Both the position numbers and the translations under genes were made by a program. This document shows, one piece after another, positions 27,421-48,555 of a stretch of 64,000 nt of DNA (the stretch's first letter is position 1; every line of letters starts with the position of its first letter). The stretch is taken from positions 3,330-67,329 of the IMG/VR virus record IMGVR_UViG_3300030397_000226. One strand, written 5' to 3'. Under the pieces are notes generated by a model that saw only the letters and a list, made by a program, of their open reading frames with translations, was not told the origin of the DNA and ran no database searches. This DNA comes from a virus.

Positions 27421-27539
27421 GAGCCCCACTTCCTCGGTCGGTAACCCTCTGGTTGTCCCAGGTGCGAGTCCGAGGTTCGCTCCGTTTCCCTTCCCCCTAG
27501 TACCTCGGTCGGGATAACATCCCGGGGAAGTGGTGGCTC
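27421..27539 (+). ncRNA. Candidate structured RNA / leader upstream of dnaB (element C)
   Basis: GAGCCCCACTTCCTCGG pairs with CCGGGGAAGTGGTGGCTC; inner CCGAGGT/ACCTCGG stem with a pyrimidine loop. Confidence 0.5.
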
Positions 27540-27561
27540 TTTCTATTTGAAAGGAAACATA

Positions 27562-28827
27562 ATGTCTATCGACGTTGAAGTTGCTCTGTTGACCAAGATT
27601 ATCGAGACTGAAGACTTGAGGTCTGTCGTCCGGTCGAAGGTCACTCCCTCGTTCTTTTTGGATGAGGATGCTCGCGACATCTTCGAGTACATGGCTGAAG
27701 TGTACCAGAAGCGCGGGAGGATTCCTTCTCTTAGTCTGCTCCAAAATGAGTACCCTGACTTTGAGCCTGAGGAGTCCGACGACGACATCCTTCTTTTGAT
27801 TGATGCTGTCAAAGACAAGAAGCTCTATGCGGACCTACAGCGTACGTTGTCCAAGGTCGCGGATGAGACGCGAGGAGACCCAACTGAGGGGCTTGCCGCA
27901 TTGAAGAAGATGAGTGTGCAACTCGCTTCGATTCACTCGACAGGTGAAGACCTCGACCTCACCAAGTGTGGCGATGACCTTCGAGCGGAACTGGAGAAGC
28001 TGAAGAACACGGAAGGCACATTGGGTATCCCGTGGCCTTGGGAGGCGTTGAATCGTGCGACTCTCGGAATCCACCTCGGCGAGTTCATCGCGTTCTACGC
28101 TCGACCCAAGTCGATGAAGACATGGGTGATGCTCTACGTCGCGTACTGGATATGGAAACAGACAGGGAAGTCGATTCTGTTTCTGACCAAGGAGATGACG
28201 CCCGAGCAGATTCGACGACGTTGGGCAGCAATGGCGTGCGAGTTGGAGTACAGCGCGTTTCGTGAAGGCCGCCTCAATGAGGATGAGGAGATTCGTTTCC
28301 ACGACTTCCTCGACCAAATCGAGGACGAAGGCGAGGCACCGTTCATCGTGTCGACAGTTGAGGAGCAAGGCGCTCCAGCGTTGACGGAGATTCAGGCGAA
28401 GATTGAGGACTTTCAAGCGGACATGGTGTTCGTGGACGGGCTCTACTTTCTCGCTGAGGACCCGAGCTGGAAGTCGTTCACGGTCATCACTCGTGGACTT
28501 AAACAGCTCGCCCAGCAGAAGAAGGTCGCCATCATTGGGACAACCCAGGCGAACCGTTCTGCGGAGAAGGGACGAGGAGCACTCAGTGAGGTGGCCTTCG
28601 GTGACTCCCTCGCAATGGACGTTGACGTACTCATTCGAATCATTAGGGAAGGACAACACAGGGACAACAACGAACTGTTGATGACTCTCCCGGCGTTGCG
28701 TGAGGCTCACGGCTGCACGTTCACTATCAACGCTCTCCCAGCTCACGACTTCACTCAGAAACATGAGTTCGAACAGGAAGAGGGAAGCGAAGCACTTAAC
28801 AGCACAGACGACGGAGCGATTCTATGA
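27562..28827 (+). CDS. dnaB: DnaB-like replicative helicase
   Basis: GIPWPWEALNRAT.G, YARPKSMKT Walker A, LFLTKEM, VFVDGLY, TTQANR, FGDSLAMDVD. Confidence 0.85.
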   Translation: MSIDVEVALLTKIIETEDLRSVVRSKVTPSFFLDEDARDIFEYMAEVYQKRGRIPSLSLLQNEYPDFEPEESDDDILLLIDAVKDKKLYADLQRTLSKVADETRGDPTEGLAALKKMSVQLASIHSTGEDLDLTKCGDDLRAELEKLKNTEGTLGIPWPWEALNRATLGIHLGEFIAFYARPKSMKTWVMLYVAYWIWKQTGKSILFLTKEMTPEQIRRRWAAMACELEYSAFREGRLNEDEEIRFHDFLDQIEDEGEAPFIVSTVEEQGAPALTEIQAKIEDFQADMVFVDGLYFLAEDPSWKSFTVITRGLKQLAQQKKVAIIGTTQANRSAEKGRGALSEVAFGDSLAMDVDVLIRIIREGQHRDNNELLMTLPALREAHGCTFTINALPAHDFTQKHEFEQEEGSEALNSTDDGAIL

Positions 28828-29153
28828 TGCCAGACCAGATGGATTGGAACCACGCACTCGCTGTCATCGGCCTCATTGTGTCGGTGGCGTTGAACACGGT
28901 GTTGGCGTGGTGGGTGCGTCGTCTTCAGGAGGAGAAGGCTGCTGAGATTCAACGCAAGGAGCGCAACGAGAAGTTGTTCCTGTACTGGGAGGCGATGCAT
29001 CAATGCACGAGCTTCATGAACGGCAGGCTGCGTCACACGCTGACCTCGTTCATTGGGGACGACGGACTAACCAAGTGGATGGCTGACCATCTACTCAAAG
29101 TGAGGGAGGCCAAGAAGCACGGCATCCTTCCAGATGTGGAGAAGTACCAATGA
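28824..29153 (+). CDS. Hypothetical single-pass membrane protein
   Basis: ALAVIGLIVSVALNTVLAWW hydrophobic segment. Confidence 0.55.
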   Translation: MMPDQMDWNHALAVIGLIVSVALNTVLAWWVRRLQEEKAAEIQRKERNEKLFLYWEAMHQCTSFMNGRLRHTLTSFIGDDGLTKWMADHLLKVREAKKHGILPDVEKYQ

Positions 29154-29485
29154 GTTTCGCAATATGGTTCGTGGTCCTATTGAGTGGGTTTAATTTGTAT
29201 CAGACACCCACAATACCCGTAGTACGTCGACCGCCTCCACCTGTGGTTCTACAGCCACGCCCTGTGTTCGTTCCACCACAGCAGCCTCGAATCGTGGTGG
29301 TCCAGCAGCGTCCCTCATGGCGTGAGGAGAAACGGCGGCGCGAGTATCGTCGGAAGCGACAAGAGGAAGCGAGACGGCGCAAAGAAGCCAAGAGTGTGTG
29401 GATGTACGGACTCCGCTACGGCGAGGGTCCTCTACAAAGAGACAAGCTCCCAAAGGAGCGAAAGCAACGCCGAATGGCGTGGTGA
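29150..29485 (+). CDS. Hypothetical Pro/Arg-rich protein with signal-like N-terminus
   Basis: Hydrophobic N-terminus; ATGA coupling. Confidence 0.45.
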   Translation: MSFAIWFVVLLSGFNLYQTPTIPVVRRPPPPVVLQPRPVFVPPQQPRIVVVQQRPSWREEKRRREYRRKRQEEARRRKEAKSVWMYGLRYGEGPLQRDKLPKERKQRRMAW

Positions 29486-29516
29486 ACATAATCAATAGAT
29501 TGAAAAAGGAAACAAC

Positions 29517-29849
29517 ATGAGCACATCAAAAAAGAAGCCAGTAATTCGTCAGGGAGACAAAGCAGCATTCGTGCGGAGTCTACCGTTCAGCACGCCAGCG
29601 AGCGAGGTCCGTGACCTTGCCAAAAAGAAGGGGATGATTATCTCCAAGGCGTACATCCACAATATTCGGTCGGCGGCGAATAAGGCGTCCCGTGTCGTCA
29701 TGAAGAAGGCCGGAAAGAAGACCCTCAAAGGCAAGCGGTCCACGCTGGAGAACAAATTCAAGGAGCTGGTGGTGACCCTCGGTCCTGCGCGAGCGAAGAA
29801 GCTCCTCACGCAGACGGAGACGGCTCTCTCGTTGGAGGCGCAACGATGA
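29517..29849 (+). CDS. Basic putative DNA-binding protein
   Basis: Lys-rich; AAGGAAACAACATG leader. Confidence 0.55.
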   Translation: MSTSKKKPVIRQGDKAAFVRSLPFSTPASEVRDLAKKKGMIISKAYIHNIRSAANKASRVVMKKAGKKTLKGKRSTLENKFKELVVTLGPARAKKLLTQTETALSLEAQR

Positions 29850-30157
29850 GTCGTCAGGTTATCCACAAGCACGTCCTCAACGCTGACCTCCTTAACAAGG
29901 TTCAGACGATTGAACTTGCACCCGCAGGTTCACTGCTCCGAACTGGAGTACAGGGCGACAAACTTGTGTTCTGGGAGTCCCACCCCATTGATTGGGAGGG
30001 GCTTACTGAGAAGATGCGCGCACACACCCAGGTTGACTTTTTAGTCGTGTTCACTGGGAGCGAGTTTGAGGCGGAAGGATTTACTTGGCTCGGCACAGAG
30101 CAGCTTGGTTCCTTCGTGTTCCACGTTCTCTACCGTGTACGAGCGAAGCATGGCTGA
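29846..30157 (+). CDS. Hypothetical protein
   Basis: IHKH.L......QTIEL.....LL..GVQG..LVFW pattern of a common small phage family. Confidence 0.55.
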   Translation: MSRQVIHKHVLNADLLNKVQTIELAPAGSLLRTGVQGDKLVFWESHPIDWEGLTEKMRAHTQVDFLVVFTGSEFEAEGFTWLGTEQLGSFVFHVLYRVRAKHG

Positions 30158-30533
30158 CTTATCTCTATCGCGGAAATTGTACGCGGCGTCAGTCGCGTTG
30201 CAGCACGATGACCCGAAGACGCATCGAGAGATGCTCATCGGTCTCTGTGCGGAAGTCCAGGCGGAACTCATGCCTCCGTTCAAGGACCTGCTGTGGAGAG
30301 ACAACACGGGTCGTTCGTGGAAAGTCGAGGACATGAATGATGGGCACATCGTCAACGCCCTGCACGTTTTGGCTCGACGTCCTGATGAACCATTGAGTCC
30401 GATGTTTAAGGCACTCTACTACGAATGCCGAGAGCGTTACCATCAGAAGAAGTTCCATAGATGGATGTGGAGGAAGTTCCTCGATGCTAGGAAACTGGCT
30501 CGTGAATTGGGGTGGCTCGATGACTCCGATTGA
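30150..30533 (+). CDS. Hypothetical protein
   Basis: WRDNTGRSWKVEDMNDGHIVNAL; coupled to neighbours. Confidence 0.5.
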   Translation: MADLSLSRKLYAASVALQHDDPKTHREMLIGLCAEVQAELMPPFKDLLWRDNTGRSWKVEDMNDGHIVNALHVLARRPDEPLSPMFKALYYECRERYHQKKFHRWMWRKFLDARKLARELGWLDDSD

Positions 30534-31506
30534 GGACTATCTGCGGGAAGCGGGAGCGCGTAGGGTTCGTCTGTCAGGCGATAACTACGTCTCCACCTGC
30601 CCGTTCCACAAGGACTCGAAGCCGAGCTTCGCGATGAACAAGAACAACGGCATGTTCGTCTGCTACTCCGCTCACTGCGGCGTTCAGGGGAATCTCTACC
30701 TGTTCTTAGTGAATGCACTCGATTACACCCCAGACAAGGCCAAGAAGGTTGTAGAGAACTTCGGTCTTTTTGAGTCGATTCAAAAGTACGAGGGAGGGTT
30801 CGCTACTCTGCCAGACTACGACGACCGACATCAATCTGGGGCGAAACCTGACGAAGCGAGCATTACGGAAGGGCAGCTCGGTCTCTACCAGTTCTGCCCG
30901 AAGTACATGACCAAGCGTGGGTTTAAAAAGAAGACCCTGAGGCGCTGGGGCGTCGGCTACGACTTCAGCACAAGTCGAGTCACTATCCCGGTGCGAGACA
31001 GGGACTGGAACCTCGTTGGAATCTCGAAGCGCGCGACTAAGGATTGGCAGGAGCCCAAGTATCTCCATCTCGGTTTCTCGAAAGGGAAACACCTGTACGG
31101 GGAGAACATGCGAGACGGTCACGATATAGCCATCGTGATGGAGGGTCAGCTGGACGTTCACTCGTTCAACCAGAATGACCTCGACAGCCCGTGGCTTCCG
31201 GTTTCCACGATGGGGACCAGGGTCACGAACCGTCAGATTAAGATGATGCGTAAATTCAAGACTGTCGTTTTGGCATTCGACAATTTCCGAATTGACGCTG
31301 ATGGGTTAGCGACGACCAAGAAGGTGGGGGATGCTCTCTTACCACACGTCGGAGCGAACTTGTTCGTGTTTGACTTTCAAACAACTAACGTGAAAGACTA
31401 CGGCGATTTACTAAATCAAGAAGTTGACTACGGCCGCATGATTCTGCCGTATGATTCCTGGCGCCTAGAATCGGACCAATGGTCCAACAATGAAAGGAGT
31501 GCGTGA
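30520..31506 (+). CDS. dnaG: DNA primase (CHC2 zinc finger + TOPRIM)
   Basis: CPFHKDSKPSF...CYSAHCG; RVTIPVRD; IVMEGQLD; VVLAFDN...DADG. Confidence 0.9.
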   Translation: MTPIEDYLREAGARRVRLSGDNYVSTCPFHKDSKPSFAMNKNNGMFVCYSAHCGVQGNLYLFLVNALDYTPDKAKKVVENFGLFESIQKYEGGFATLPDYDDRHQSGAKPDEASITEGQLGLYQFCPKYMTKRGFKKKTLRRWGVGYDFSTSRVTIPVRDRDWNLVGISKRATKDWQEPKYLHLGFSKGKHLYGENMRDGHDIAIVMEGQLDVHSFNQNDLDSPWLPVSTMGTRVTNRQIKMMRKFKTVVLAFDNFRIDADGLATTKKVGDALLPHVGANLFVFDFQTTNVKDYGDLLNQEVDYGRMILPYDSWRLESDQWSNNERSA

Positions 31507-32678
31507 TGCTGAAGGGTATGCGCAAGGTGAAGAAGGTCGCTAAGCGACTAGAAGATGAGCGAGGAGACTGGGGCGCGTACGTTCCCTTCTTCAAGCTAGA
31601 CGACGGCGAATCAGCCATCGTTCGTTTCAACGGTAGTGAGGACGAACCTCACATCTTTGAGTCACACAGCATTCGACGAGGCAACAAGTTCAGCGGCGTC
31701 AACTGCGCGAAGGACACACCCGGTCACGATGGATGCGTAGGCTGTTGGTCGAACTCCAATGGAGACAAGGGCGTTGGACGCCCAGCTTCGAAGGGCGCAT
31801 TCAACCTCATCGACCATCGGTGGTACCACAAACTACTTGACCGAGAGAAGAGTGACGGAGAGAACAAGAGGTATAAGTACATCCTCTGTTCCGATGACGC
31901 TCGATGTAAGTACTGCCGCAAAAAGAAGAAGCGCGAACACGGCGGACAAAAGCGCGTCACTTTCGCACTTCAATGGGCTCAACTCCTCGCGGCCACAGAT
32001 GAGAAGTTGTCCAAGAAGTGCAAGTCGTGTGGCGTCGGTCGCGTCAAGGCTGTCGGGTACGAAGACGAAGATGGCGAACCTGTCGACCCTCCCAGCGATG
32101 ACGAGGAGTTGGAAGAAGCTATCGAGAGTGGTGAAATCTTCGAGGTTCTTGAGTGCAACAAGTGCGAGGAACCGGAGCGTTGTACGTTGAATGACGCTTT
32201 GCTTGAAGTCACTCGCGTAGGGTCAGGCACCAACACGACCTACAAGTTCGACATCGAAGAGATTGTCGAGATGGAGGAGTGGGAAACAGAGTGCGAGCCT
32301 GGTGACCTGGAGGCTCAAAACAAGCCCCTCAGCGCGGAGAAGCAGGCAGGCGTCATTGGCGTACAGAATCCGTTCGGCAACTCAGCAGATGACGAAATCG
32401 ACGAATGGGATGACGAGGACGAAGAGGACGAAGAGGAGAAGCCTCGTAGGGGTCGAGGCAGACGTAGCAGGCGCCGTGATGACGATGAGGATGACGACGA
32501 AGATGAAGATGATGACGTCGCAGAACCTTTTGACGACGAAGACGACGATGAGGATGACGACCCTCCCCCACGCCGTCGCAGCAAGAAAAAGGTTGTGAAA
32601 AAGAAGGTCCGAAAGAAGGTCGCGAAGAAGTCTTCCAAAAAGAAGACGAAGAAAAGGTTACTACGCAGGCGTCGTTGA
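31503..32678 (+). CDS. Single-stranded DNA-binding protein (gp32-like, Zn-binding) with acidic and basic tails
   Basis: FFKLDDGESAIVRF, Cys clusters, EVTRVGSGTNTTY.F; poly-D/E then poly-K/R tail; lies between primase and polymerase. Confidence 0.65.
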   Translation: MMLKGMRKVKKVAKRLEDERGDWGAYVPFFKLDDGESAIVRFNGSEDEPHIFESHSIRRGNKFSGVNCAKDTPGHDGCVGCWSNSNGDKGVGRPASKGAFNLIDHRWYHKLLDREKSDGENKRYKYILCSDDARCKYCRKKKKREHGGQKRVTFALQWAQLLAATDEKLSKKCKSCGVGRVKAVGYEDEDGEPVDPPSDDEELEEAIESGEIFEVLECNKCEEPERCTLNDALLEVTRVGSGTNTTYKFDIEEIVEMEEWETECEPGDLEAQNKPLSAEKQAGVIGVQNPFGNSADDEIDEWDDEDEEDEEEKPRRGRGRRSRRRDDDEDDDEDEDDDVAEPFDDEDDDEDDDPPPRRRSKKKVVKKKVRKKVAKKSSKKKTKKRLLRRRR

Positions 32679-32685
32679 CTGAATG

Positions 32686-32711
32686 GGGGCGGGCAACCGC
32701 CCCTGTTTTTT
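32686..32711 (+). terminator. Rho-independent terminator
   Basis: GGGGCGG-GCAA-CCGCCCC followed by TGTTTTTT. Confidence 0.85.
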
Positions 32712-32733
32712 CAAACTAGGGAAAAGGGAAACA

Positions 32734-34848
32734 ATGAGCGGACGAATATGGCATCCGAAGATAACGAGTGAGGGACGGCTAGACCTCAGTCATGTCTGGT
32801 ATGCGAAGACCCCGGAGGATTGTGAGCAGGTTATGAGAGCCCTCGCAGACTCCAAGCTGACGGGGTTCGATACCGAGTACGGTGGATACGAACAGGACAA
32901 GCAGCACCCGGTGGGTAGGGTGAAGGGCTACGCGATGCAGTTCTCTACGGAGGAGCATCCGTACATCTTCGTGCAGTGCTGGGGTGAGGGGCGTCGAAAC
33001 CCTCATGTGTTCAAGCGGTGGTTTGAGGACGAGAGTGCCCCAAAGACCTTGCACAATTACAAGGCGGACGCCCACGTTGTCGCGGAATGGGGATACGACC
33101 TCAAGGGTCTCGCGGGCGACACAATGGTGATGGATTACACATTGAATGTGCCTCGCCCTCACTCGCTGAAGAACTGCTACTTCGACTACTTTGGGAAGGA
33201 CACGAGCGAGTATCGCGATACGTTCGTTCGGCCGAGGCAGAACAAGAACGGCACAGCTTCCAAAACGAACTACCTCCCCACCATTGCGGAGATGTTGGGG
33301 ATTGAAGGCATCGAGCTGACGGCCGGGAATGAAGACGCGCCGCTCTGGTACAAGAAACCGGGGTACATGAAGCGGTACGTTCCCGCGAGGGATGTGCTGG
33401 TCGACTACGCGGTGAAGGACCCGTTCTACACTCTGGAGTTGTTCAATTACCTTAAGGACAGATTGTCAAACATTGAGTGGTGCGCTCGCGGCTCGATGTG
33501 GGATTACTACAAGACGTTCGAACTCCCGTACACAGAGACACTGTTCGGAATGGAGCGGCGAGGCATGGCACTCAGCCAAGAGTTCCTCGACAACTGCGAT
33601 ACGACCATCATGAATGACGTGGTGGAGCTGGAACAGGAGTTCATGCGTGAGGCAGTGAAGCTCGGCGCGGACCCAGAGTCGATGCTGTCGTTCAACATGA
33701 ATGCGCCTCAGCAGATTGGCGGACTCTTCGATGGGTTCGGTTTCAAGTTCACCTCGTTCACTGAGAAGACGAAACTCCCTCAGGTGACGCCCGAGCAGCT
33801 CCACAAGAACCGCTCGAAACGCACCAGCAAAATCATCGATGCGTATCTCGAATGGAAACGACTGACGAAAATTCACGGCACCTATACGTTGCCCTTCCAG
33901 GAAGCGAGCAACTTCTACGGAGGACGTGTCCATACTCAGTTCAAACAGATTGGCACTAAGACGGGACGCCTCTCGTCAGCAACGCCAAACCTTCAGAACA
34001 TTCCGCGAGCGGGTGACACGGACAAGTACGGAATCCGAAAGGCGTTCGTCGCGGAGAAGGGAATGGTTCTAGCGGATGCCGACCTCGCTCAGGTTGAGAT
34101 GCGTTTAATGGCGCACCTGACCAATGACGAAGCGATGATTAAGGCAATCCTTCGAGGCCACGACTTGCACGCTGTGACGGCGGCGGACTGTTTCCGCGAA
34201 GTGAATGAGTTCGTTGCGGGCCAGAAGGCGGCAGGCATCCACGAGGACGACCTGTTCTGTGAGAATGGTCCGGTGAAGAAGGAGTTCCCTATTCCCAGGC
34301 AGCGCTCCAAGGGCCTCAACTTCGGTATCGCGTACGGGATGACGGAGATTCGGTATGCGAAGGAGACGGGCGCGAACAAGAAGGAGGCCATCCGAGTCCT
34401 CCGAGCGTTCTTCGACGGCAAGCCTGGTCTCGCGAAGGGAATCAAGAACACGCACCGTTTCTGTCACCGTCACGGATTCATTCGGACTCTCTTGAGGCGT
34501 TACGTTCACATTCCCGAGATTCACAGTCACAAGTTCGGCGAGATGAAGTACGCTGAGCGTCAGTCATTCAACTACGTCATTCAGGGGTCTGCGGCAGATA
34601 TGCTCAAAATGAGCATGCTCTTAATCGACAGAGACGAAGACCTCGCGGACATGGGAGTGACGATGAACCTCCAGGTCCACGATGAATTGGTTTTCCAGAT
34701 GCCCGACGACAAAGCTACCAGAAAGCGTGCGAAGCGACGGATTGAAGACTACATGAGTAGACCGTACAAACACTTTGGCATGAAGGATTTGCGGGTGCCC
34801 ACGCCTGCGGAACTCAACTTCGGTTACTCGTGGGCGGATGCGAAGTAG
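32734..34848 (+). CDS. polA: Family A DNA polymerase with 3'-5' exonuclease
   Basis: Exo GFDTEY / HNYKAD / YAVKD; TGRLSSATPNLQNIP; motif A DADLAQVEMR; motif B RQRSKGLNFGIAYG; motif C VHDEL. Confidence 0.95.
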   Translation: MSGRIWHPKITSEGRLDLSHVWYAKTPEDCEQVMRALADSKLTGFDTEYGGYEQDKQHPVGRVKGYAMQFSTEEHPYIFVQCWGEGRRNPHVFKRWFEDESAPKTLHNYKADAHVVAEWGYDLKGLAGDTMVMDYTLNVPRPHSLKNCYFDYFGKDTSEYRDTFVRPRQNKNGTASKTNYLPTIAEMLGIEGIELTAGNEDAPLWYKKPGYMKRYVPARDVLVDYAVKDPFYTLELFNYLKDRLSNIEWCARGSMWDYYKTFELPYTETLFGMERRGMALSQEFLDNCDTTIMNDVVELEQEFMREAVKLGADPESMLSFNMNAPQQIGGLFDGFGFKFTSFTEKTKLPQVTPEQLHKNRSKRTSKIIDAYLEWKRLTKIHGTYTLPFQEASNFYGGRVHTQFKQIGTKTGRLSSATPNLQNIPRAGDTDKYGIRKAFVAEKGMVLADADLAQVEMRLMAHLTNDEAMIKAILRGHDLHAVTAADCFREVNEFVAGQKAAGIHEDDLFCENGPVKKEFPIPRQRSKGLNFGIAYGMTEIRYAKETGANKKEAIRVLRAFFDGKPGLAKGIKNTHRFCHRHGFIRTLLRRYVHIPEIHSHKFGEMKYAERQSFNYVIQGSAADMLKMSMLLIDRDEDLADMGVTMNLQVHDELVFQMPDDKATRKRAKRRIEDYMSRPYKHFGMKDLRVPTPAELNFGYSWADAK

Positions 34849-34857
34849 GAGAATCAA

Positions 34858-35547: not shown

Positions 35548-35551
35548 AGAT

Positions 35552-36637: not shown

Positions 36638-36662
36638 CATAGTAATAGAAAGGATAAAGAAC

Positions 36663-39161: not shown

Positions 39162-39162
39162 T

Positions 39163-39369: not shown

Positions 39370-39713
39370 CAGCACACGCAGGTGAGCCTGTTTTCGACGA
39401 CCCTCATCTCTTCATGTTCGCGATTGCGGGAAAGACTCGCGATGAGGCTCGCAAAGCTCTCAAGCGCGTGGTTCAGGAGAAGGGGTATCACGAGAGTCAG
39501 TGGGACGAGATTCCCCCTAATGAAAAGGTTCTTTACGACAGAGCGTTTGTCGCGACCCGAGATATGGTTCGTGGCAACGCCTGGAGTTTCAAGGTGGATG
39601 AGAAAGAGCCCTACTCTATCGACGTCATCAATCAGATGAAGCAGACGATTCGCCGAATCATCTTCGTTGTCCGGTTGAAGGAAGCGAAGGGGCGTCACGA
39701 TGTCCATAGTTGA
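39366..39713 (+). CDS. Hypothetical protein
   Basis: GTGA-coupled ORF, 115 aa. Confidence 0.5.
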   Translation: MTAHAGEPVFDDPHLFMFAIAGKTRDEARKALKRVVQEKGYHESQWDEIPPNEKVLYDRAFVATRDMVRGNAWSFKVDEKEPYSIDVINQMKQTIRRIIFVVRLKEAKGRHDVHS

Positions 39714-40506
39714 GAAGGTGCGCAAAAAGAAAGTACTCAAAAAGCGCATCAAGAAGAAGGTCGTGAAGAAGACGCGGCCAGTGGTGAGGGAGAATCCGAA
39801 GGTGATTGCTCCTCCCCCGAGCGTCATCGGAATCATCGACGACGTAATCGAGGCAGACAAGGAAGTCGTTCGTTTCTTTCGGCCGTCCATGTTTCATGGG
39901 TGTCCGAGGGCGAACGTCTTTCACCACGTCATGGCTCCTCGCCACCCACAGCGAATCACCAACCGTCTACGTCGAATCCTCGACAACGGGAGCGCGGTTC
40001 ACGAGTGGGTGCAGGAGCACTACCTCTCTCGCCACCTCAAGTACTGGTTCATCAAAGAACCGAAGGTGCTCGCCAAAATCAACGGAGCCTATGTGCGCGG
40101 CTCCTGCGACGGTGTGTTCATCCGACGGAGCGACGGGTACCGATTCGGTATCGAGTTCAAAACGATTGGCCACACCTACTTCGAGCGACTCACGAAGCCG
40201 AAGCCCGAACACGTTCTTCAGGCGCGCATCTACATGCGACTCCAGAAGCTCGACTACATCGTCATCGTCTATTGGGACAAAGACAAGCAGTTCTTAAAGG
40301 AGTTCCCAGTCAAGGCTGACGATGCGGAATGGAAGAAAATCACCCAGCGAGTGAAGAAATTCAAAGGGTACGCGGACAAGTACGACGCTGCGAAGAACGA
40401 CCGCGATAGGGCCAAGGCTTTGCCTGTGTACAACCGTAAGGTTTGCGACCCCGACTTCTGTACATACACTGACTACTGCAAGAAGATGGGGGCTCCGCTC
40501 CCGTAA
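39700..40506 (+). CDS. Cas4/RecB-like PD-(D/E)XK exonuclease with probable Fe-S cysteines
   Basis: PSMFHGCPR, GSCDG...IEFKT, QARIYM, C-terminal CDPDFCTYTDYC (1+3 Cys layout). Confidence 0.85.
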   Translation: MSIVEKVRKKKVLKKRIKKKVVKKTRPVVRENPKVIAPPPSVIGIIDDVIEADKEVVRFFRPSMFHGCPRANVFHHVMAPRHPQRITNRLRRILDNGSAVHEWVQEHYLSRHLKYWFIKEPKVLAKINGAYVRGSCDGVFIRRSDGYRFGIEFKTIGHTYFERLTKPKPEHVLQARIYMRLQKLDYIVIVYWDKDKQFLKEFPVKADDAEWKKITQRVKKFKGYADKYDAAKNDRDRAKALPVYNRKVCDPDFCTYTDYCKKMGAPLP

Positions 40507-40520
40507 CGAAAGAATGAAAG

Positions 40521-40964
40521 ATGTCCAAACTGAAACTAATGTTTTTCTCATTGTTGATGGCACTGACCGTGGCAGGTTGTTCCGGTATGCCTCAGAAGGA
40601 GGTGATACTGCGGGACGCGACAACTCTGTCGAACGGGGCCGCTGTTACCATCTCCACTGCCCAGGCGACTGCGATGCTTCTGTACGAAGCACATCAGGTT
40701 GCGTACGTCGAGACGGAGGCGGCGAAGGAGGGGGCTACCAAGGCGAAAATTCGAGCTGGCCTTGAGCAGATTCGAGAGGACTGGGAACCCGTCAAGGAGT
40801 TGTTCAAACAAGCCATCGACGTTCACGGCGTTCTCACTGAACTCATTGAACGAGGAGACGACCTCATCACACTCGCGGAACAGACTAAGAAGCTGATGGA
40901 GCTTCAAGCCGAAATCGCTGACTTCATTTCCGACAAGCGGGAAGAAGTCTCCAATCTCAAATAG
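40521..40964 (+). CDS. Putative lipoprotein (helical)
   Basis: Signal peptide with lipobox LTVAG-C. Confidence 0.65.
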   Translation: MSKLKLMFFSLLMALTVAGCSGMPQKEVILRDATTLSNGAAVTISTAQATAMLLYEAHQVAYVETEAAKEGATKAKIRAGLEQIREDWEPVKELFKQAIDVHGVLTELIERGDDLITLAEQTKKLMELQAEIADFISDKREEVSNLK

Positions 40965-40977
40965 GAGGACCAGAGAA

Positions 40978-41184
40978 ATGACCATGCTAGTTGCATTTTT
41001 GAAGTTCATGGTGGGGATTGCCCCCGACATGTACGGCACCGTCAAGCACGCTCTTCGTGAGTGGAAAGAGCTAGATGACGCCAAAACGGAAGAACTCATC
41101 AAGGAAATTGAGCCCGCTGATTGGGGCGCAGTGGACAAAAAGGTCGACAACAAGGTAGACTCCCTGGACATCCCCGAGGAATAG
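40978..41184 (+). CDS. Hypothetical small protein
   Basis: AGGAGG leader; hydrophobic N-terminus. Confidence 0.55.
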   Translation: MTMLVAFLKFMVGIAPDMYGTVKHALREWKELDDAKTEELIKEIEPADWGAVDKKVDNKVDSLDIPEE

Positions 41185-41224
41185 CCCATCTTAGGGGAGC
41201 AACAGGTTGGTATTTGCCCGGAAT

Positions 41225-41284
41225 GGGGTGGGTGGTTCAGTTAGCGTTTTTGTTGTTTCCTTCGTTCGCTGAACCGCCCGCCTC
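41225..41284 (+). ncRNA. Candidate small RNA hairpin with anti-RBS loop (element A)
   Basis: 16-bp stem GGGGTGGGTGGTTCAG/CTGAACCGCCCGCCTC; loop TTTTTGTTGTTTCCTT. Confidence 0.5.
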
Positions 41285-41320
41285 GCTCTCTTCCAACTAG
41301 ACACAACAACAGACACAGCA

Positions 41321-41536
41321 ATGGCTAACTCAAACCTCAAGCGAGATAAGCGCATCGAAATCTGGCGCGGTAACTGGAACGCAATGTACGGCGCTCGACC
41401 CGAGCCCACTCGACGCGAAGACGGTTCACTCGTCATGTCTCCCAGCGTTCCGATGAACAACCCCGATGGGACTCCGATGACGCGCAAGCAACGTCGCAAG
41501 GTTTGGCGTGAGTCGAGAAAGTTGGCGCGGTCATGA
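41321..41536 (+). CDS. Hypothetical basic protein
   Basis: 71 aa; A/C-rich leader with no clear SD. Confidence 0.5.
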   Translation: MANSNLKRDKRIEIWRGNWNAMYGARPEPTRREDGSLVMSPSVPMNNPDGTPMTRKQRRKVWRESRKLARS

Positions 41537-41880
41537 GTGACGACAAGAACATGCCTATCCCCCTCGATACGAAGTTGGGGGAAATCACCATCCTACAGTT
41601 CGCGGACCTCCTGGAGTTCAAGGGAGACGTTCACCGTGCGCAGCTTGCCGAAAAAGAACGGATTCTATCTGAACGAGTCTTCGCGGACATTGACGGGGTG
41701 CGGAATCTCGCACACCCGTTTCGTATGCGCTCGAAGAAGGACGTACGCGAGTTCACGAAGCAGCTCGAAGAGTTCATCGACGCCTCCGAGAAAGGCGGCT
41801 CCCCGAAGTGCGAGTTCGTCGTCGCGATGGCGATTGTCTCACCCGATGGTGAAGTGACGAAGATGCCTTGGGATGAGTGA
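41533..41880 (+). CDS. Hypothetical protein
   Basis: ATGA-coupled on both sides. Confidence 0.55.
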   Translation: MSDDKNMPIPLDTKLGEITILQFADLLEFKGDVHRAQLAEKERILSERVFADIDGVRNLAHPFRMRSKKDVREFTKQLEEFIDASEKGGSPKCEFVVAMAIVSPDGEVTKMPWDE

Positions 41881-42368
41881 TGAAGCGTCTCAAGATAAAG
41901 AAGGCGGCGGACCCACTCAAGGCCGCTAAACAACGACTGCGCGAGCTACGTCTCCGCGCCCCGACACGGCCCGTCAACGACGACGGGACCGCTCTCAACC
42001 CACAACTCCCTCCTGACCTGACCGCGTTGAACGATGTCGAGATTGGACGACTCCACTCTCAGTTCGCGTGCATGGCTCAGTACGCCATAACGAGGCTGGC
42101 CATCATGGCGGTCGAGACTGCGGTGGCGAAGAAGGAAGAGAAGTTCGTGCGTGCGAAGGTGCGCACTGAGAAGTCTGGCACTGTTGCCGACAAGGACATG
42201 AAGGTAGACCTCGACAGGCGAACCAGGAGTGCGGGTCACCACACTCTGGTTGGCGAAAGCACTGAAGGGCTTACACGGGCAGTACTTGAGGGGTTCCTCA
42301 TTGGCCGTGATGCTACGTCGCGAGAGATGACCCGCCGGCACCGTACGGATTGGGGAAACAGGACGTAA
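41877..42368 (+). CDS. Hypothetical helical protein (possible recombination mediator)
   Basis: LPPDLTALNDVEIGRLHSQF then coiled coil; recombination neighbourhood; function is inference. Confidence 0.4.
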   Translation: MMKRLKIKKAADPLKAAKQRLRELRLRAPTRPVNDDGTALNPQLPPDLTALNDVEIGRLHSQFACMAQYAITRLAIMAVETAVAKKEEKFVRAKVRTEKSGTVADKDMKVDLDRRTRSAGHHTLVGESTEGLTRAVLEGFLIGRDATSREMTRRHRTDWGNRT

Positions 42369-42371
42369 CAC

Positions 42372-42713
42372 ATGGTTAACAAAGTACTAACAGATGAAGA
42401 TGTAGTTCCGGCACACAAGGAGCCGTACGAGTTTCGAGTGTCGAACAAGACCTCGGTCCACGACTTAGCGACAGGAATTCAGCGACACGTTGAAGAAGGG
42501 AAGTCGGTCGTGCTCTCGTGCATGGGCGTTGCTCCCAACTCAACTGCTGTGAAGGCGGTTGCGGTCGCGAACGGTCGTGTGGCTCCCCAAGGCTTCGTCT
42601 TCCTCATCATGCCCGCGTTCGGGTCAGCGATGGTCACCAACAAGGACCACCAAGGTGAAGTCGAGCGCACCACGATTCGGCATCAGATTGTCAAGTACAT
42701 CGTGGGGACGTGA
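42372..42713 (+). CDS. spoVS: SpoVS-family protein
   Basis: RVSNKT...LA..I........V.L...G......AVKAVAVANG.VAPQG......PAF.......ERT.I matches the SpoVS pattern over its full length. Confidence 0.85.
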   Translation: MVNKVLTDEDVVPAHKEPYEFRVSNKTSVHDLATGIQRHVEEGKSVVLSCMGVAPNSTAVKAVAVANGRVAPQGFVFLIMPAFGSAMVTNKDHQGEVERTTIRHQIVKYIVGT

Positions 42714-43207
42714 TGGCGAAAGCGTCACGGGACAAAGGGAAGAGAGGAGAACGCTGGCTAGCTACCAAACTGCGTGAATGGTTCCCCGAGTTCGCGAAGA
42801 GCATCGTACGAGGTCGGCAGTCTCGTGGGGCATCCAATGATGAACAGGACGTAAAATTTCCACTCATTTGGTGGGAGATGAAGTCCGGTAAGAAGCAGAA
42901 TCCACGCGCAGCGCTGGCCCAGGCGATTGAAGACGTAGCGACGAATGGAGGGGAGAAGATTCCCGTGGCCTGTGTCAAAGACGACAGGAAAGACGCATTC
43001 GTGGTTCTCCTATTGGATGACTTTTTGTTCCTACTCAAAGATGGGAACATGAAAGCCTTAAAGAAGGCTTACAGAAAGGAAACAACAGATGGCAGACGTA
43101 ACAAAGTATTACGAGATGGCGGCGGACGGGAAGTTCTATCTCGTCCTGGAGGACGAAGATGGAAACCCCGTATACGAGCCAGCCGACGAAAGTCTAAATC
43201 TCGTTGA
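42710..43207 (+). CDS. Holliday junction resolvase-like nuclease 2 (Hjc-type)
   Basis: SRDKGKRGER.LA..L, DV......EMKSGK, C-terminal VVLLLDDFLFLLK. Confidence 0.8.
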   Translation: MMAKASRDKGKRGERWLATKLREWFPEFAKSIVRGRQSRGASNDEQDVKFPLIWWEMKSGKKQNPRAALAQAIEDVATNGGEKIPVACVKDDRKDAFVVLLLDDFLFLLKDGNMKALKKAYRKETTDGRRNKVLRDGGGREVLSRPGGRRWKPRIRASRRKSKSR

Positions 43208-43670
43208 GATTGGGAAGACCGGAAAGTTCATTGAGGCCCGCGACCTCGCTGAGCTAGCCAAGCAGCGGGCAGCTGATAGTCACAAGGACTATTTCGAGGA
43301 CCCGACTAAGGCAAAGCAGCGAATGAAGTCGCAGGAAGCTCTCGCTCGTCAATTGGACGTTCTGAGTACGGACATGCGCGTACCTCCCACGGGACCGAAC
43401 GTACGCTACATCAAGGACGAGGAGTTCCTTGAGCTGCGGAAGACGTATGAGAAGGCACACGCTGTGGGGCAGGAGCGGGATTGCGACTTTCAGCCCCTCT
43501 CTTCGTACCACCACAAACTGACCACGAAGTCAGGGACCATCATTCGTCCCGTGTTCCAAGGCGAAGTAGGTATGGAAGGCCACACCATCCTCTGTCTGGA
43601 AGAAGGCTACGGAAAGGGTACTATGGTCGTTGGAGGTCTCGATGCCCAAGCAATACCCGAAGGGGAGTGA
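43089..43670 (+). CDS. Hypothetical protein
   Basis: AAGGAAACAACAG-ATG leader; 193 aa. Confidence 0.6.
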   Translation: MADVTKYYEMAADGKFYLVLEDEDGNPVYEPADESLNLVEIGKTGKFIEARDLAELAKQRAADSHKDYFEDPTKAKQRMKSQEALARQLDVLSTDMRVPPTGPNVRYIKDEEFLELRKTYEKAHAVGQERDCDFQPLSSYHHKLTTKSGTIIRPVFQGEVGMEGHTILCLEEGYGKGTMVVGGLDAQAIPEGE

Positions 43671-43872
43671 ATCCCGACTATCACGAGAAGGACTACGCGG
43701 TGCTCGTCTCGAAGGCACTGAGCACGAAGGCAAAGTGGTCAAGGACATTTGGGCACACAAGGAATCTCGACGACAACGAACCGTCAAGTTCACTGACGGG
43801 ACAGAGGCCAACATGGGAATCTTCGAGTTGGTCGGTCACCTGATTAAAGGACGAGTGAGGACAAAACGATGA
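43642..43872 (+). CDS. Hypothetical protein
   Basis: GGAGG before ATG; coupled to next gene. Confidence 0.4.
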   Translation: MPKQYPKGSESRLSREGLRGARLEGTEHEGKVVKDIWAHKESRRQRTVKFTDGTEANMGIFELVGHLIKGRVRTKR

Positions 43873-44327
43873 TGAGAAGCGGAATCAGCCCTGGGGCGGC
43901 CAAGCCCTGCAAAGACTGCCCTGGCAGTGACCCAGTAGAATCAATCAAAAAGTCAGCGACGTTTCTCGTCCAGGCTCACCAAGGGATGCAGGCCCTTTAC
44001 GGAACTCTCGCGACTCTCGCACGACAAGAGGGTGCAACTAAGGACGCGGAGGCTTACGAGAGAGCCGCTCAGCGTCACCAACAGATGGCAGAGTGGAGCG
44101 CTGAGGTTACGCTCCCAGATGGTGCAGAGGTAGACGAAGACGATGAAGACACTCTCAATGACACAAATCCACTTATGGCGACCGGAGATGGGAGCGGGTC
44201 TGGACCTGAAGCTCCTGAGGAAGGCAGCGGTGGCTCTAGCGGAGTACTCGACGGCGGGGAAAGCGGGAGTGAACATGGGGGACCCGAGGTACCTGGAGGT
44301 GGCCGGGTCGACGAAGAACCCGGTTGA
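43869..44327 (+). CDS. Hypothetical protein with acidic Gly-rich tail
   Basis: Helical N-terminus with CKDC; tail overlaps next ORF. Confidence 0.45.
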   Translation: MMRSGISPGAAKPCKDCPGSDPVESIKKSATFLVQAHQGMQALYGTLATLARQEGATKDAEAYERAAQRHQQMAEWSAEVTLPDGAEVDEDDEDTLNDTNPLMATGDGSGSGPEAPEEGSGGSSGVLDGGESGSEHGGPEVPGGGRVDEEPG

Positions 44328-44793
44328 GTCATTTCTCTACTGGTACCTCCTACATCTGGGGTACGGGGCGATGGCTCACGCCACTCTCATGCCCTGTACT
44401 CTGCCCTACGCATTTTGCGAGCAGTGGCAGACCGTTGGGACACTTCACGTCCCTTCCCCAGGTGACATCGTTCTATTGGCACACAAGGATGTGATTGCCG
44501 AAAAGACTGGACACAAAGGGTACCACGCTTGCGTGTGCGAATCGTGGGGGGACACCGAGTTCAAGTCCTACGACTACGGACAGTGGAACCAGATGTACAA
44601 TGTTCCGGGTGGCCGCAAGAACGTGCGCAAACTCGACAAGCCGTGGGTGTTCGAAACTCACCGCGTCATGGGGTGGGTGGACATCTCCAGACTCCCAATC
44701 ACTAAACCAGCGAAGCTGCCCGAGGGACTCGACATCGGCATCGCTGTTGACACAGAGAAAGAGTTCCATTTTTACACAGACAAGGACAACTGA
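44143..44793 (+). CDS. NlpC/P60/CHAP-like fold protein (catalytic Cys not evident)
   Basis: PSPGDIVLL ... GYHACV; adjacent to endolysin; start uncertain (44143/44158/44188). Confidence 0.45.
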   Translation: MKTLSMTQIHLWRPEMGAGLDLKLLRKAAVALAEYSTAGKAGVNMGDPRYLEVAGSTKNPVESFLYWYLLHLGYGAMAHATLMPCTLPYAFCEQWQTVGTLHVPSPGDIVLLAHKDVIAEKTGHKGYHACVCESWGDTEFKSYDYGQWNQMYNVPGGRKNVRKLDKPWVFETHRVMGWVDISRLPITKPAKLPEGLDIGIAVDTEKEFHFYTDKDN

Positions 44794-44796
44794 ATC

Positions 44797-45663
44797 ATGA
44801 GAACACTACGAGTAGGAATGCAAGGGGCCGACGTTGAGGCCCTTCAACACTTTGTGAACAACTACCTCGACCCCGACATCGGGGCTGACGGAGTGTTCGG
44901 GAGTAAAGAGACCAAGCCCGCCGTCATGAAGGTGCAGGCTATTGCGATGGAGAAAGGTCTCGACATTGGGGAAGACAAACCCGATGGCGTAGTTGGGAAG
45001 ATGACGACCGCTGCCTTCATGCAGATGGGGTGGGAGCCTGTCGGGTACACTCAGATTGAGGAGAAGGTCGACGAGAATTACGCGAAGCCTGACTACAAGG
45101 CTCTCCGTCAACACGAGCGCATCGCGAAGTTCGGTACTCCCGGCTCCATCGGCGAAGATGGTAAGTTCGTTCTGGATGAGAAGTTCCGCAAGGAGATTAC
45201 TTCAATTGATATTGCTGATTTTGTCACTCTCCCGAAGGATTTTGAGGGCTCAACCAAGCTGTTCCTGCACAAAAAGGTAAAGGGACAATGGAAGGCGATT
45301 CTCTCAGAGATTGAGGCACAAGGTCTGGGAAAAGATTTGCTGACCTGTGGAGGAAGTTGGGCGCCGCGATTCGTGCGCGGCTCACGGACGACTTTTTCGA
45401 GCCACGCATTCGGGACAGCTATCGACTTCAACGTCCCTTGGAACTACATGCGACAAACGCCCGCCCGAAAAGGAAAGAAGGGGTACCTCGGCAACATCGT
45501 CGCGATTTGCAAGCACTACAAAGTGTACAGCGGCGCGTGGTTCCGACGTCTCGACGGCATGCACCTAGAGAGTACGCATACCGACGAGGAGCTTGAGAAG
45601 ATGGGAGTCTTCAAAGGTACCAAGGAGCGACTGAAGAAGCTGGGCGAAGAGAAGGCGTCCTGA
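44797..45663 (+). CDS. Endolysin: peptidoglycan-binding domain + M15 peptidase
   Basis: LRVGMQGADVEALQ..DGVFG..DGVVGKMT; SSHAFGTAIDFN and DGMHLE zinc motifs. Confidence 0.9.
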   Translation: MRTLRVGMQGADVEALQHFVNNYLDPDIGADGVFGSKETKPAVMKVQAIAMEKGLDIGEDKPDGVVGKMTTAAFMQMGWEPVGYTQIEEKVDENYAKPDYKALRQHERIAKFGTPGSIGEDGKFVLDEKFRKEITSIDIADFVTLPKDFEGSTKLFLHKKVKGQWKAILSEIEAQGLGKDLLTCGGSWAPRFVRGSRTTFSSHAFGTAIDFNVPWNYMRQTPARKGKKGYLGNIVAICKHYKVYSGAWFRRLDGMHLESTHTDEELEKMGVFKGTKERLKKLGEEKAS

Positions 45664-46067
45664 TGGAGAAGTTGCGACTGAACATGAGAGCGACCGTTGA
45701 GTGCAAGTTCTCGGCGGCGCACCAGTTGGAAGGGCTGGGAGCGGACCACCCGTGTACGAGTCTTCACGGACACAACTACAAGGTGTGGATTACGTTCGAA
45801 GGGGAGCCTGACGAACTTGGGCTCATCATCGACTTCCGCTTGGTCAAGGACGTCATCAAGAAGATGTACGACCACAAGAACCTCAACGAGGTCATGCCTG
45901 GCCGAAACACCACAGCAGAGAATCTGTCGTTTGACGTGTTGCGCGTAATGAACGATGTGATTTTCAAGATGCAGGAAGAAGAGCGCGTCCGCGTCGTGCT
46001 GGTCGAGGTTCAGGAGACAGAGACGTCGAAGGTGCGTCTGGAGGTTGTACCTTATGAAGACGCTTAA
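45663..46067 (+). CDS. queD: 6-carboxy-5,6,7,8-tetrahydropterin synthase
   Basis: FSAAHQL....CTSLHGHNY, IIDF..VK, DHKNLN, TTAENL, VQETETS. Confidence 0.95.
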   Translation: MEKLRLNMRATVECKFSAAHQLEGLGADHPCTSLHGHNYKVWITFEGEPDELGLIIDFRLVKDVIKKMYDHKNLNEVMPGRNTTAENLSFDVLRVMNDVIFKMQEEERVRVVLVEVQETETSKVRLEVVPYEDA

Positions 46068-46734
46068 ATTGGTCGGTTTCCAGAAGCCCATCTTCTCCAC
46101 GGTTCAGGGTGAAGGACACCTGTCGGGTACTCCTTCGGTGTTCGTGCGCCTCCACGGTTGCGACTTCTCGTGCGAATGGTGTGATACCAAAGAGTCCTGG
46201 CGCGAGGGAAGCGACTACGACAATACGGACGTTGACGAAGTGATTGAGCTCATCAAGCTCAGTGGAATGGAGCATGTCGTCATCACTGGAGGGAATCCCA
46301 TCCTTCAGGGAGACTCGCTCCTCGACGTCGTACAGGAGCTGAAGGAGCACCACATCACCATCGAGACTCAGGCGTCCGTCTACCATGACATCGCCCGAGA
46401 CGCTGACCTCCTCAGCCTCTCCCCGAAACTCCACGACTGGCGTGAAGACGTCATTCAGGAGTTCCTGGATAACGCTCAAAGGGAGACGCAGTTCAAGGTG
46501 GTGGTGCCTTCGATGGGGGACCTACCCTCAGCACTTCGGAAGCTGGAGCGGGTGAACGAAATGAATCCGTACAAAACGGTTCACTATTTCATCCAACCGG
46601 AGTACAACGGCGGTCGTGCGCTGGTGAGGAGCATCATCGACTCGATTATCGAAAGTCGGTTCCTCGGTAGCATCAACCTTCCGAACCTGCGGGTCCTTCC
46701 TCAACTTCACAAAACGAGCCTCCACGTTGTCTAA
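46054..46734 (+). CDS. queE: 7-carboxy-7-deazaguanine synthase (radical SAM)
   Basis: FSTVQGEG..SGTPSVFVRLHGCDFSCEWCDT, VVITGGNP, LSLSPK, RVLPQLHK. Confidence 0.95.
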   Translation: MKTLKLVGFQKPIFSTVQGEGHLSGTPSVFVRLHGCDFSCEWCDTKESWREGSDYDNTDVDEVIELIKLSGMEHVVITGGNPILQGDSLLDVVQELKEHHITIETQASVYHDIARDADLLSLSPKLHDWREDVIQEFLDNAQRETQFKVVVPSMGDLPSALRKLERVNEMNPYKTVHYFIQPEYNGGRALVRSIIDSIIESRFLGSINLPNLRVLPQLHKTSLHVV

Positions 46735-47308
46735 GCCTGACCCCCTCGTCCGCGCTGTCCGAATGATGTTGGACGAAGCGGTCACCGTTAACGAGCCCGA
46801 GCTGCTTGACTTGAAGAACACGCCTCGGCGTGTGGCGAAGATGTACCGGAAGGAGTTGCTCTCATCGTACGAGTTCAACTCCGAGGTCGCTCTCAGAGAA
46901 AAATTCACCACGTTCCCCAGTCAGGGGAATCACGAGATGGTGACGGAATCGAACATCCAATTCTACTCACTATGTGCTCACCACATGTTGCCTTTCTTCG
47001 GCAAAGCTCACGTTGGGTACATTCCACACAACGAGATTGTTGGGCTGTCGAAGATTCCTCGTGTGGTCGAGTACTTCTCTCGTGCGTTACAGACTCAAGA
47101 GAGGTTCACGAGCCAGGTGGCCGACTTCCTCAACACCGAGCTTGACGCGGCGGGAGTGATTGTGATTACTGAAGCGCGTCACTTGTGTATGGAGATGAGG
47201 GGCATCGAAAAGCCTGAAACTGTGACTCGTGTTTCTGCGATTCGAGGGCGTGCTAGAGACCCCGTTGTGCGTGACGAATTTTATCGGTTGATTTCTTTGG
47301 GAAAATGA
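46727..47308 (+). CDS. folE: GTP cyclohydrolase I
   Basis: NTPRRVAKMY, FYSLCAHHMLPFFGKAHVGYIP, GLSKIPR, QTQER, ARHLCMEMRG. Confidence 0.95.
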   Translation: MSKPDPLVRAVRMMLDEAVTVNEPELLDLKNTPRRVAKMYRKELLSSYEFNSEVALREKFTTFPSQGNHEMVTESNIQFYSLCAHHMLPFFGKAHVGYIPHNEIVGLSKIPRVVEYFSRALQTQERFTSQVADFLNTELDAAGVIVITEARHLCMEMRGIEKPETVTRVSAIRGRARDPVVRDEFYRLISLGK

Positions 47309-47313
47309 CCTGA

Positions 47314-47342
47314 TTGACATTGACACGTCACAGTGACACAAT
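47314..47342 (+). promoter_or_regulatory. Sigma70-like promoter
   Basis: TTGACA-N17-CACAAT; spacer contains TGACAC-GTCA dyad. Confidence 0.65.
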
Positions 47343-47355
47343 GAACGAACTTACT

Positions 47356-47410
47356 GAATCCCGATTGACTGGTTTTGTTGTCCCTTTCCAGGCTTTCGGG
47401 ATTCGTTTTT
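47356..47410 (+). ncRNA. Candidate small RNA / leader hairpin with anti-RBS-like loop (element B)
   Basis: GAATCCCGA/TCGGGATTC and CTGG/CCAG stems; loop TTTTGTTGTCCCTTT; followed by GTTTTT. Confidence 0.5.
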
Positions 47411-48525: not shown

Positions 48526-48555
48526 TTGACACCGAATCACCCCATCGACTAGGAT
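48526..48555 (+). promoter_or_regulatory. Sigma70-like promoter
   Basis: TTGACA-N18-TAGGAT. Confidence 0.5.

Follow-up and report, generated by a model that had tools for sequence, protein, structure and literature searches.

Intergenic hairpins with oversized C/U-rich loops at module boundaries of an uncultured phage genome

Three RNA hairpins, here called elements A, B, and C, are encoded in intergenic regions of a 64-kb stretch of viral DNA (the window), which covers the greater part of an aquatic-metagenome virus contig in IMG/VR (69.5 kb). All three carry large loops that are rich in C and U, and comparable hairpins are found in related phages. Oversized C/U-rich loops are a recurrent trait of the intergenic hairpins of this clade, and this is the robust part of the finding. 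Only loop B is specifically antisense to the consensus ribosome-binding leader of the phage, AAAGGAAACAACA, beyond what composition explains. With slightly less than even confidence, we read the three elements as cis-acting leader hairpins, that is, attenuating terminators or transcript-end hairpins, with C/U loops of the anti-Shine-Dalgarno (anti-SD) type.

The initial annotation had placed the three hairpins in intergenic regions and described their loops as pyrimidine loops that resemble the anti-SD sequence of 16S rRNA. The hairpins are real, are found at the stated coordinates, and fold significantly on the + strand only, with z-scores of -4.1 (A), -6.3 (B), and -3.4 (C). Loops B and C are predicted to be open (mean probability of being unpaired 0.97 and 0.81, respectively), whereas loop A, with a mean of 0.60, is open in part only, and its GUUUCCC is partly paired in the minimum-free-energy structure. 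The loops are 82-88% pyrimidine, and pyrimidine-rich 15-mers are uncommon on the purine-rich + strand (66 tracts in 64 kb). The likeness to the anti-SD holds as well: their CCUU or CCCUUUC cores are the same as in the 16S 3' tail and match the SD type used in the phage (GAAAGG, AAGGA). Loops B and C both contain TTTTGTTGT, with an estimated p of ~0.04 given the U-richness of both.

Syntenic relatives were identified through PolA homologues (40-49% identity) and are denoted L003, L005/L032, L006, L007, and L008; two other relatives, L021 and L022, were reached by a DnaB profile. Hairpin censuses were either too permissive or missed interrupted stems and are used qualitatively only. In them, the most stable large-loop hairpins over all loci are B and a hairpin of L008 (-35.9 kcal/mol each), whose loops are 88-100% pyrimidine against a background of 45-46%, and L032 and L003 supply further large-loop hairpins that are C/U-rich.

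Element B (41225-41284, + strand) is the simplest of the three. Positions 41225-41246 pair with 41263-41284, giving 22 pairs, five of them G-U, around a 16-nt loop. Its folding free energy (dG) is -39.5 on the + strand and -21.7 (z -1.2) on the minus strand. Since the minus-strand complement folds much less well, the signal, or the selection, is on the + strand RNA. Loop B, TTTTTGTTGTTTCCTT (41247-41262), has a sequence exactly antisense to AAGGAAACAACA, which is the phage's consensus strong leader. On the + strand AAGGAAACAACA occurs three times, each time just 5' of a start codon, and its single minus-strand occurrence is loop B. The three leaders are at 29506-29517, overlapping the first base of ATG 29517-29519 (110-aa protein), at 43076-43087, before ATG 43089 (193-aa protein), and at 61659-61670, overlapping the first base of ATG 61670-61672 (68-aa protein); all three proteins are of unknown function. 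The 12/12 match at three start sites reported in the initial annotation is thereby reproduced, and it belongs to loop B. For AAAGGAAAC, there are seven + strand occurrences, each of them just ahead of a start codon.

Element B is followed by CTCGCTCTCTTCC and lacks a U-tract; the bases examined for one are CUCGCUCUCUUCC. The gene 3' of it starts at ATG 41321 with a CA-rich leader that has no SD. Promoter and terminator calls in this analysis are consensus matches, and gene starts are heuristic. On this basis the only promoter-like sequence before B is one weak 9/12 site inside the upstream gene. A positional homologue of B was not found in the relatives. As a separate observation on one of the matched leaders, the RusA-like open reading frame (ORF) at 42713-43207 has a C-terminal extension of ~50 aa and overlaps the next ORF (43089-43670) by 119 nt, and it is the start of this second ORF that bears the perfect consensus leader.

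Because leaders are purine-rich and the loops pyrimidine-rich, any null for their complementarity must keep composition. Each loop was compared with ~100 start regions (-22 to +6) under two nulls, namely 500 composition-matched shuffles of the loop and 141 natural pyrimidine-rich 16-mers of the same strand. For loop B, the longest exact complement of 12 nt has p values of 0.006 (shuffles) and 0.007 (natural tracts). Complements of at least 8 nt are found in seven leaders, where 1.1-1.2 are expected (p 0.016 and 0/141), and the p values for B over the measures are 0.002-0.02. Loop A exceeds the nulls in one measure only, the energy of its single best duplex, which it forms with the polA leader (-24.8 kcal/mol; p 0.024 and 0/141), and is unremarkable in the others (p 0.25-0.9). 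Loop C is no better than chance against either null (p 0.46-0.75).

The same comparison was made in the relatives, each loop against the start regions of its own genome. The L008 loop is not specific (p 0.83), and three other relatives' loops, including those of L003 and L032, gave 12 shuffle p values of 0.10-0.92. C-type loops compared with their own downstream start regions in three phages are likewise no better than shuffles (p 0.51-0.88). Note that shuffles cannot test a pairing that is purely compositional, such as that of C-type loops with the purine-rich start of the Lys-rich gene described below.

The leader barcode proposed in the initial annotation, by which a family of loops would address a defined gene set, therefore holds statistically for one of the three elements. 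The complementarity exceeds that of composition-matched loops for B, and for A in the polA duplex only; otherwise the complementarity of A and C is that of any C/U-rich loop to purine-rich leaders. Nor is conservation of the addressing supported, as the relatives' loops have no leader-specific complementarity and the match of loop A to the polA leader is absent in L008.

Element C (47356-47410, + strand) consists of a 9-bp basal stem (47356-47364 paired with 47396-47404), an internal loop, a 4-bp apical helix, and a 15-nt loop, followed by GTTTTT (dG -21.5). At the RNA level, the stem is followed by one G and then by UUUUU. Loop C, TTTTGTTGTCCCTTTCC, is at 47373-47389. Just past the folE stop is a sigma-70-type promoter, TTGACA-17-(TG)-CACAAT (47314-47342, + strand). 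Together, promoter and element C are predicted to define either an RNA of ~62 nt or the 5' leader of an operon beginning with a Lys-rich protein gene (ATG 47442).

This post-folE unit recurs in L032 and L003. TTGACA follows the gene at the folE position in both, 20 nt past the stop in L032 and overlapping the stop in L003. All three phages have TTGACA, an AT-rich -10-like hexamer 15-17 nt on, and then one or two hairpins, the last of which has a C/U-rich apex and a U-tract and is followed by the gene of a Lys-rich, low-complexity protein. The stems of these hairpins are unrelated (z -3.3 to -5.1). The apex sequence GTTGTCC(C)TTTCCA is common to the window and L032, where GTTGTCCCTTTCCA of loop C is kept as GTTGTCCTTTCCA over an unrelated stem, and the apex in L003 is C/U-rich. 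The predicted RNAs are ~62 nt long in the window and 100-105 nt in L003 and L032. The Lys-rich gene is found at 47442-48077 in the window, 12130-12402 in L032, where the protein is strongly acidic too, and 21739-21870 in L003. Its presence after the unit in 3/3 phages indicates that the RNA unit and this histone-H1-like gene travel together. Small ORFs that run through element C and the relatives' hairpins have no SD and no peptide conservation. Two further features were seen nearby. A second good sigma-70-like promoter, TTGACA-18-TAGGAT (48526-48555), is in the gap before the gene starting at 48587, and the leader of this gene, GAAAGGGAACAAC, is a near-complement of loop C.

Element A (27421-27539, + strand) is a 119-nt multibranch structure that begins 7 nt past the stop of a DUF932-like gene. 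A 17-bp closing stem with one bulge (27421-27437 paired with 27522-27539) encloses a three-way interior (dG -55.3; z calculated against shuffled sequence). It is followed by the U-rich tail TTTCTATTT (27540-27548), then by the dnaB ribosome-binding site (RBS) GAAAGGAAAC (27549-27558), and by the dnaB ATG at 27562. For comparison with a Rho-independent terminator, in which a U-tract would come within 0-2 nt of a G+C-rich stem, the bases after A are UUUCUAUUU. Loop A, GTTTCCCTTCCCCCTAG (27484-27500), is 82% pyrimidine. The interior can fold in near-isoenergetic ways, and part of the closing stem is taken up in a hairpin predicted to form early during transcription. A direct repeat inside the element, CCTCGGTCGG (27431-27440 and 27503-27512), was also seen; both copies can pair with CCGAGG at 27470-27475, giving alternative interior folds within 1.5 kcal/mol. 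No promoter for A was recognised. Loop A is complementary in 15/17 positions to the polA leader CTAGGGAAAAGGGAAAC (32716-32732, + strand), as the initial annotation had found for one of its loops.

The gap before dnaB is also occupied by a hairpin in relatives. In L008 the gap is 147 nt, as in the window, and contains a hairpin of 19 bp whose loop is CUUCCCCCUUUCU; ACTTTTT and the RBS GAAAGGGGAAAC come next, and a second hairpin in this gap has the loop region CCACUCCCCCUCCCUC. CTTCCCCCT is common to loop A and the loop of the L008 pre-dnaB hairpin. L021 (57% DnaB identity) has a pre-dnaB hairpin with a 5-nt loop and no clear U-tract, while L022 has a textbook terminator with a clear U-tract; the loops of both are ordinary (5-7 nt). 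Sequence comparison thus points to a conserved hairpin position before dnaB, with a C/U-rich loop in one relative and ordinary loops in two. On whether loops are kept over stems the picture is uneven: GTTGTCC(C)TTTCCA is shared with L032 and CTTCCCCCT with L008, but the loops of L021 and L022 are ordinary, and no positional homologue of B was found. In L003, the gap before dnaB has a feature of its own, a tRNA-like 3' half (~5855-5945) with a GGTTCGAGTCC T-loop and an acceptor strand ending in ACCGCACCA. A matching 5' GCGGTAC is found ~130 nt upstream, and there is no ARAGORN or Rfam call at this place. A tRNA remnant, an interrupted tRNA, and an att-like site are all conceivable.

All genes of the window are on the + strand. 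Recognisable ones include DnaB, primase, PolA, RecA, RusA, SpoVS, and queD-queE-folE. As a working assumption, transcription is by the host RNA polymerase (RNAP). This is based on sigma-70-like promoters, which are found as consensus matches in the intergenic gaps, and on the failure to find in the contig, which is ~74% complete, either a Q-family antiterminator (PF06530) or a T7-type RNAP, the latter blank being uninformative as the control search was also empty. The genome has canonical Rho-independent terminators at 20443-20474 and 32685-32711, with 4-nt loops and 6-7 U. The second, a GGGGGCGGGC/GCCCGCCCC stem with T6, ends 22 nt before the polA start and 5 nt before the polA leader matched by loop A. 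There is no promoter between this terminator and polA, and polA must therefore depend on read-through, indicating that terminator read-through is the norm in this genome. A classical local hairpin sequestering an SD was seen elsewhere: at 4972-4992, in the gap 3' of the 4223-4900 gene, CUCUUCCUC pairs with the SD GAGGAGGAG of a gene starting at GTG 4996.

Elements A, B, and C are each single-copy, which rules them out as repeats or miniature inverted-repeat transposable elements. A near-identity search against GenBank phages gave no match, and DnaB scans of IMG/VR and of species genomes gave only relatives of 33% identity or less, or none. Relatives reached via endolysin and FolE are non-syntenic and lack the post-folE unit. 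Only 2-3 homologous sequences are available per element, too few for a covariation statistic, and DNA runs X1-X4 have identical sequence with no variants in the hairpins, so that no natural covariation was usable. With the covariance models of Rfam 15, neither the window nor five related loci had a hit at gathering level. When A, B, and C were scanned permissively, only chance-level hits appeared, the best being EcpR1 with 22.9 bits against a gathering threshold of 60 (E 0.14), and an ARAGORN search for tRNA and tmRNA found nothing.

How might these hairpins work? A, B, and C are + strand RNA hairpins in the untranslated leader of the next gene, placed at boundaries between modules: A before dnaB, B before a RusA/SpoVS recombination block, and C before the Lys-rich protein operon. 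For none of them was a promoter-like site recognised between the hairpin and the next start, which means that all downstream genes must be read through the hairpins. Most likely, each hairpin works in cis, on the transcript that contains it. A and C may be leaky, attenuating intrinsic terminators, as their U-rich tails suggest and as true terminators among their positional homologues also suggest. B may be a transcript-end, processing, or stability hairpin, judging from the lack of a U-tract and from a stem of RNase III substrate length. Together they would set the amount of RNA and translation that passes into the next module and would leave short hairpin-ended RNAs. The oversized C/U-rich loops would be a trait under selection in this clade. 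With CCUU or CCCUUUC sequences like the 16S 3' tail, these loops of anti-SD type could pair with purine-rich ribosome-binding regions in general. The complementarity would then be mainly compositional and not an address for individual genes. What the analysis shows directly are the structures with their strand specificity and positions, the composition and accessibility of the loops, the conserved post-folE unit, and the statistics; termination or attenuation, pairing in vivo, and a released small RNA are inferred.

Several observations weigh against this interpretation. B has neither a U-tract nor a relative, and its role as a terminator is weakly founded. Its 12-nt complement to three leaders, and of at least 8 nt to seven, is unexplained by composition. 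Loops of 15-17 nt are atypical for efficient intrinsic terminators, and the two canonical terminators of this genome have 4-nt loops. Moreover, the GTTGTCC(C)TTTCCA kept between the window and L032 suggests, from sequence comparison, a loop with a sequence-specific partner, which a pure terminator would not need.

B, and perhaps C and A, may instead give rise to trans-acting small RNAs (sRNAs), with loops that base-pair to SD or leader regions and so repress translation, as LhrC, RsaE, and the cuckoo RNAs do. We consider this doubtful, and equally doubtful its details, in which C would be transcribed from its own promoter as a ~62-nt primary RNA, upstream mRNAs would yield A and B when they terminate or are processed, and B would address at least seven phage genes bearing AAAGGAAAC(AACA). 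Loop B, 97% unpaired and perfectly complementary over 12 nt to three leaders, keeps its specificity under both nulls, the promoter, terminator, and loop motif of C are conserved in relatives, and anti-SD C/U loops over variable stems have published precedent (PMC4132741, PMC4615179, PMC2790875). However, C, the sole element with its own promoter, is unspecific, A is specific for one target only and loses this match in L008, and the loops of L008, L003, and L032 do no better than shuffles against their own start regions. With three loops tested, p ~0.006-0.02 for B is only moderately strong. In addition, no promoter was found for A, and B has only its weak 9/12 site. An extended form, in which B released from the upstream transcript and the post-folE RNA C together shut off in trans a strong-RBS class AAAGG(G)AAAC(AACA), is improbable. 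The class would comprise at least seven genes, including dnaB and the three ORFs of unknown function, and would form a self-directed translational timer, with an address reaching beyond the SD core; this too we think improbable.

In another reading, each loop acts in cis, gating translation of the next gene by a pseudoknot with that gene's RBS. Part of loop A, GUUUCCCUUC, is complementary in 9/10 positions to the dnaB RBS GAAAGGAAAC 50 nt downstream, the L008 loop sequence CCCCUUUC is complementary in 8/8 positions to its own dnaB RBS GAAAGGGG, a 7-nt pairing is available between B and ACAACAA of the next leader, and the hairpin at 4972-4992 is a genuine case of local SD sequestration in this genome. 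Yet no loop has its own downstream gene among its eight best targets, C-type loops in three phages pair with their own downstream starts no better than shuffles, and the pre-dnaB hairpin of L021 has a 5-nt loop with no anti-SD. Since an anti-SD-like loop matches any strong SD, the 9/10 and 8/8 matches are generic SD complementarity, and we hold such a switch to be quite improbable. The hairpins may also be protein sites, either for RNase III-type processing in long stems, as between T7 early genes, or for a pyrimidine-tract binder that controls read-through, such as S1, Hfq, a Csp-type antiterminator, or a phage protein. With 22 pairs, the stem of B is as long as RNase III substrates are, the loops are U/C-rich and unpaired, and three phages keep a promoter-then-terminator order before the Lys-rich operon, an order typical of antitermination control (lambda PR'-tR' is an example). 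Against this, no CSD, RRM, or Q-type antiterminator family was found in the contig, itself ~74% complete, and no motif resembling a protein site is common to all loops; we consider it unlikely. Finally, loop B could be coding. A 21-codon ORF, MVFARNGVGGSVSVFVVSFVR (41207-41272, + strand), has a TTG start with the SD AGGGGAG 7 nt upstream, runs through the 5' arm and the loop of B, which is read as VFVVSF, and stops in the 3' arm. Its product might be a small hydrophobic peptide, or a leader peptide that opens hairpin B while being translated. The comparable ORFs that cross C and the relatives' hairpins have no SD and are unconserved as peptides, and the 12-nt antisense match is left unexplained by the ORF, making this reading very improbable.

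Long intergenic regions of another kind were seen in three relatives, at 964-1328 in L003, 4397-4620 in L005, and 4647-5051 in L007. They fold with -84 to -150 kcal/mol and contain alternating purine-pyrimidine arms (CGCGCACG...) that flank AT-rich palindromes or GAATTAAGA tandem repeats. They are candidates for packaging sites or replication origins; nothing like them was seen in the window.

If the elements are indeed attenuators with anti-SD loops, an uncultured phage clade that relies on the host RNAP would use them to meter expression from one module to the next (replication, recombination, chromatin-like). The post-folE unit is compact and kept in three phages, and it is described by no RNA family. 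As it stands directly before a Lys-rich, histone-H1-like gene, it offers a handle on the control of an unusual operon. Should B truly target the consensus leader, a lytic-type phage would be turning a C/U-loop RNA on genes of its own, which is rarely seen.

Among known systems, one comparison is with the canonical terminators of the same genome. Like them, the elements are found directly before the next gene, and A and C have a G+C-rich stem and a U-rich tail. The canonical terminators have 4-nt loops and 6-7 U, whereas loop lengths are 15-17 nt in the three elements and B lacks a U-tract. The short loop of ~3-8 nt expected of a terminator is absent from all three, which have 15-17 nt loops or a multibranch structure, and a consensus scan (loop 3-8) omits them. 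The post-folE unit resembles the lambdoid PR'-6S RNA-tR' arrangement, in which a promoter and then an intrinsic terminator precede an operon that needs read-through. Here too a constitutive-looking promoter is followed by a putative terminator within 60-105 nt and by an operon to be read through. It differs in that a Q-family gene was not found in the contig, the downstream operon is Lys-rich and chromatin-like and not late structural, and the apex is conserved in sequence. Phage hairpin RNAs that are made from the same transcript as their targets, with loops pairing near the RBS, are c4 antisense RNA (P1/P7) and CI RNA (P4). In c4, two loops match two defined sites in one operon and control immunity. 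The candidate targets here are scattered, and any processing of the elements is hypothetical.

Similar in loop design are bacterial sRNAs. In LhrC of Listeria monocytogenes, C/U-rich motifs in hairpin loops, including the terminator loop, pair with SD regions (PMC4132741), and in Staphylococcus the UCCC loops of Rsa RNAs, including RsaE, and of RNAIII do the same (PMC2790875). Their UCCC and CUCCC...UUUU loop motifs are similar to UCCCUUUCC in C, UUCCCUUCCCCC in A, and CUUCCCCCUUUCU in L008. LhrC and RsaE, however, are chromosomal sRNAs with promoters, and their action in trans is shown by experiment; of the elements here, known from sequence alone, only C has a promoter and only B has target-specific complementarity, and there is no sequence or Rfam relationship. 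The cuckoo (alpha-r14) family has CCUCCUCCC loops, which are conserved, anti-SD-like, and 9-27 nt long, and highly variable stems (PMC4615179). The likeness is in the combination of variable stems with an anti-SD-like loop, so that members can be told only from loop motif and shape. Each cuckoo RNA has 2-4 hairpins side by side, all with the same motif, whereas the phage has three single elements 6-14 kb apart with differing loops. The initial annotation took the arrangement to be undescribed; C/U-rich anti-SD loops over variable stems are, as these three families show, a design principle already established in bacteria, and what the phage would add is a new instance and a new context of it, not a new mechanism.

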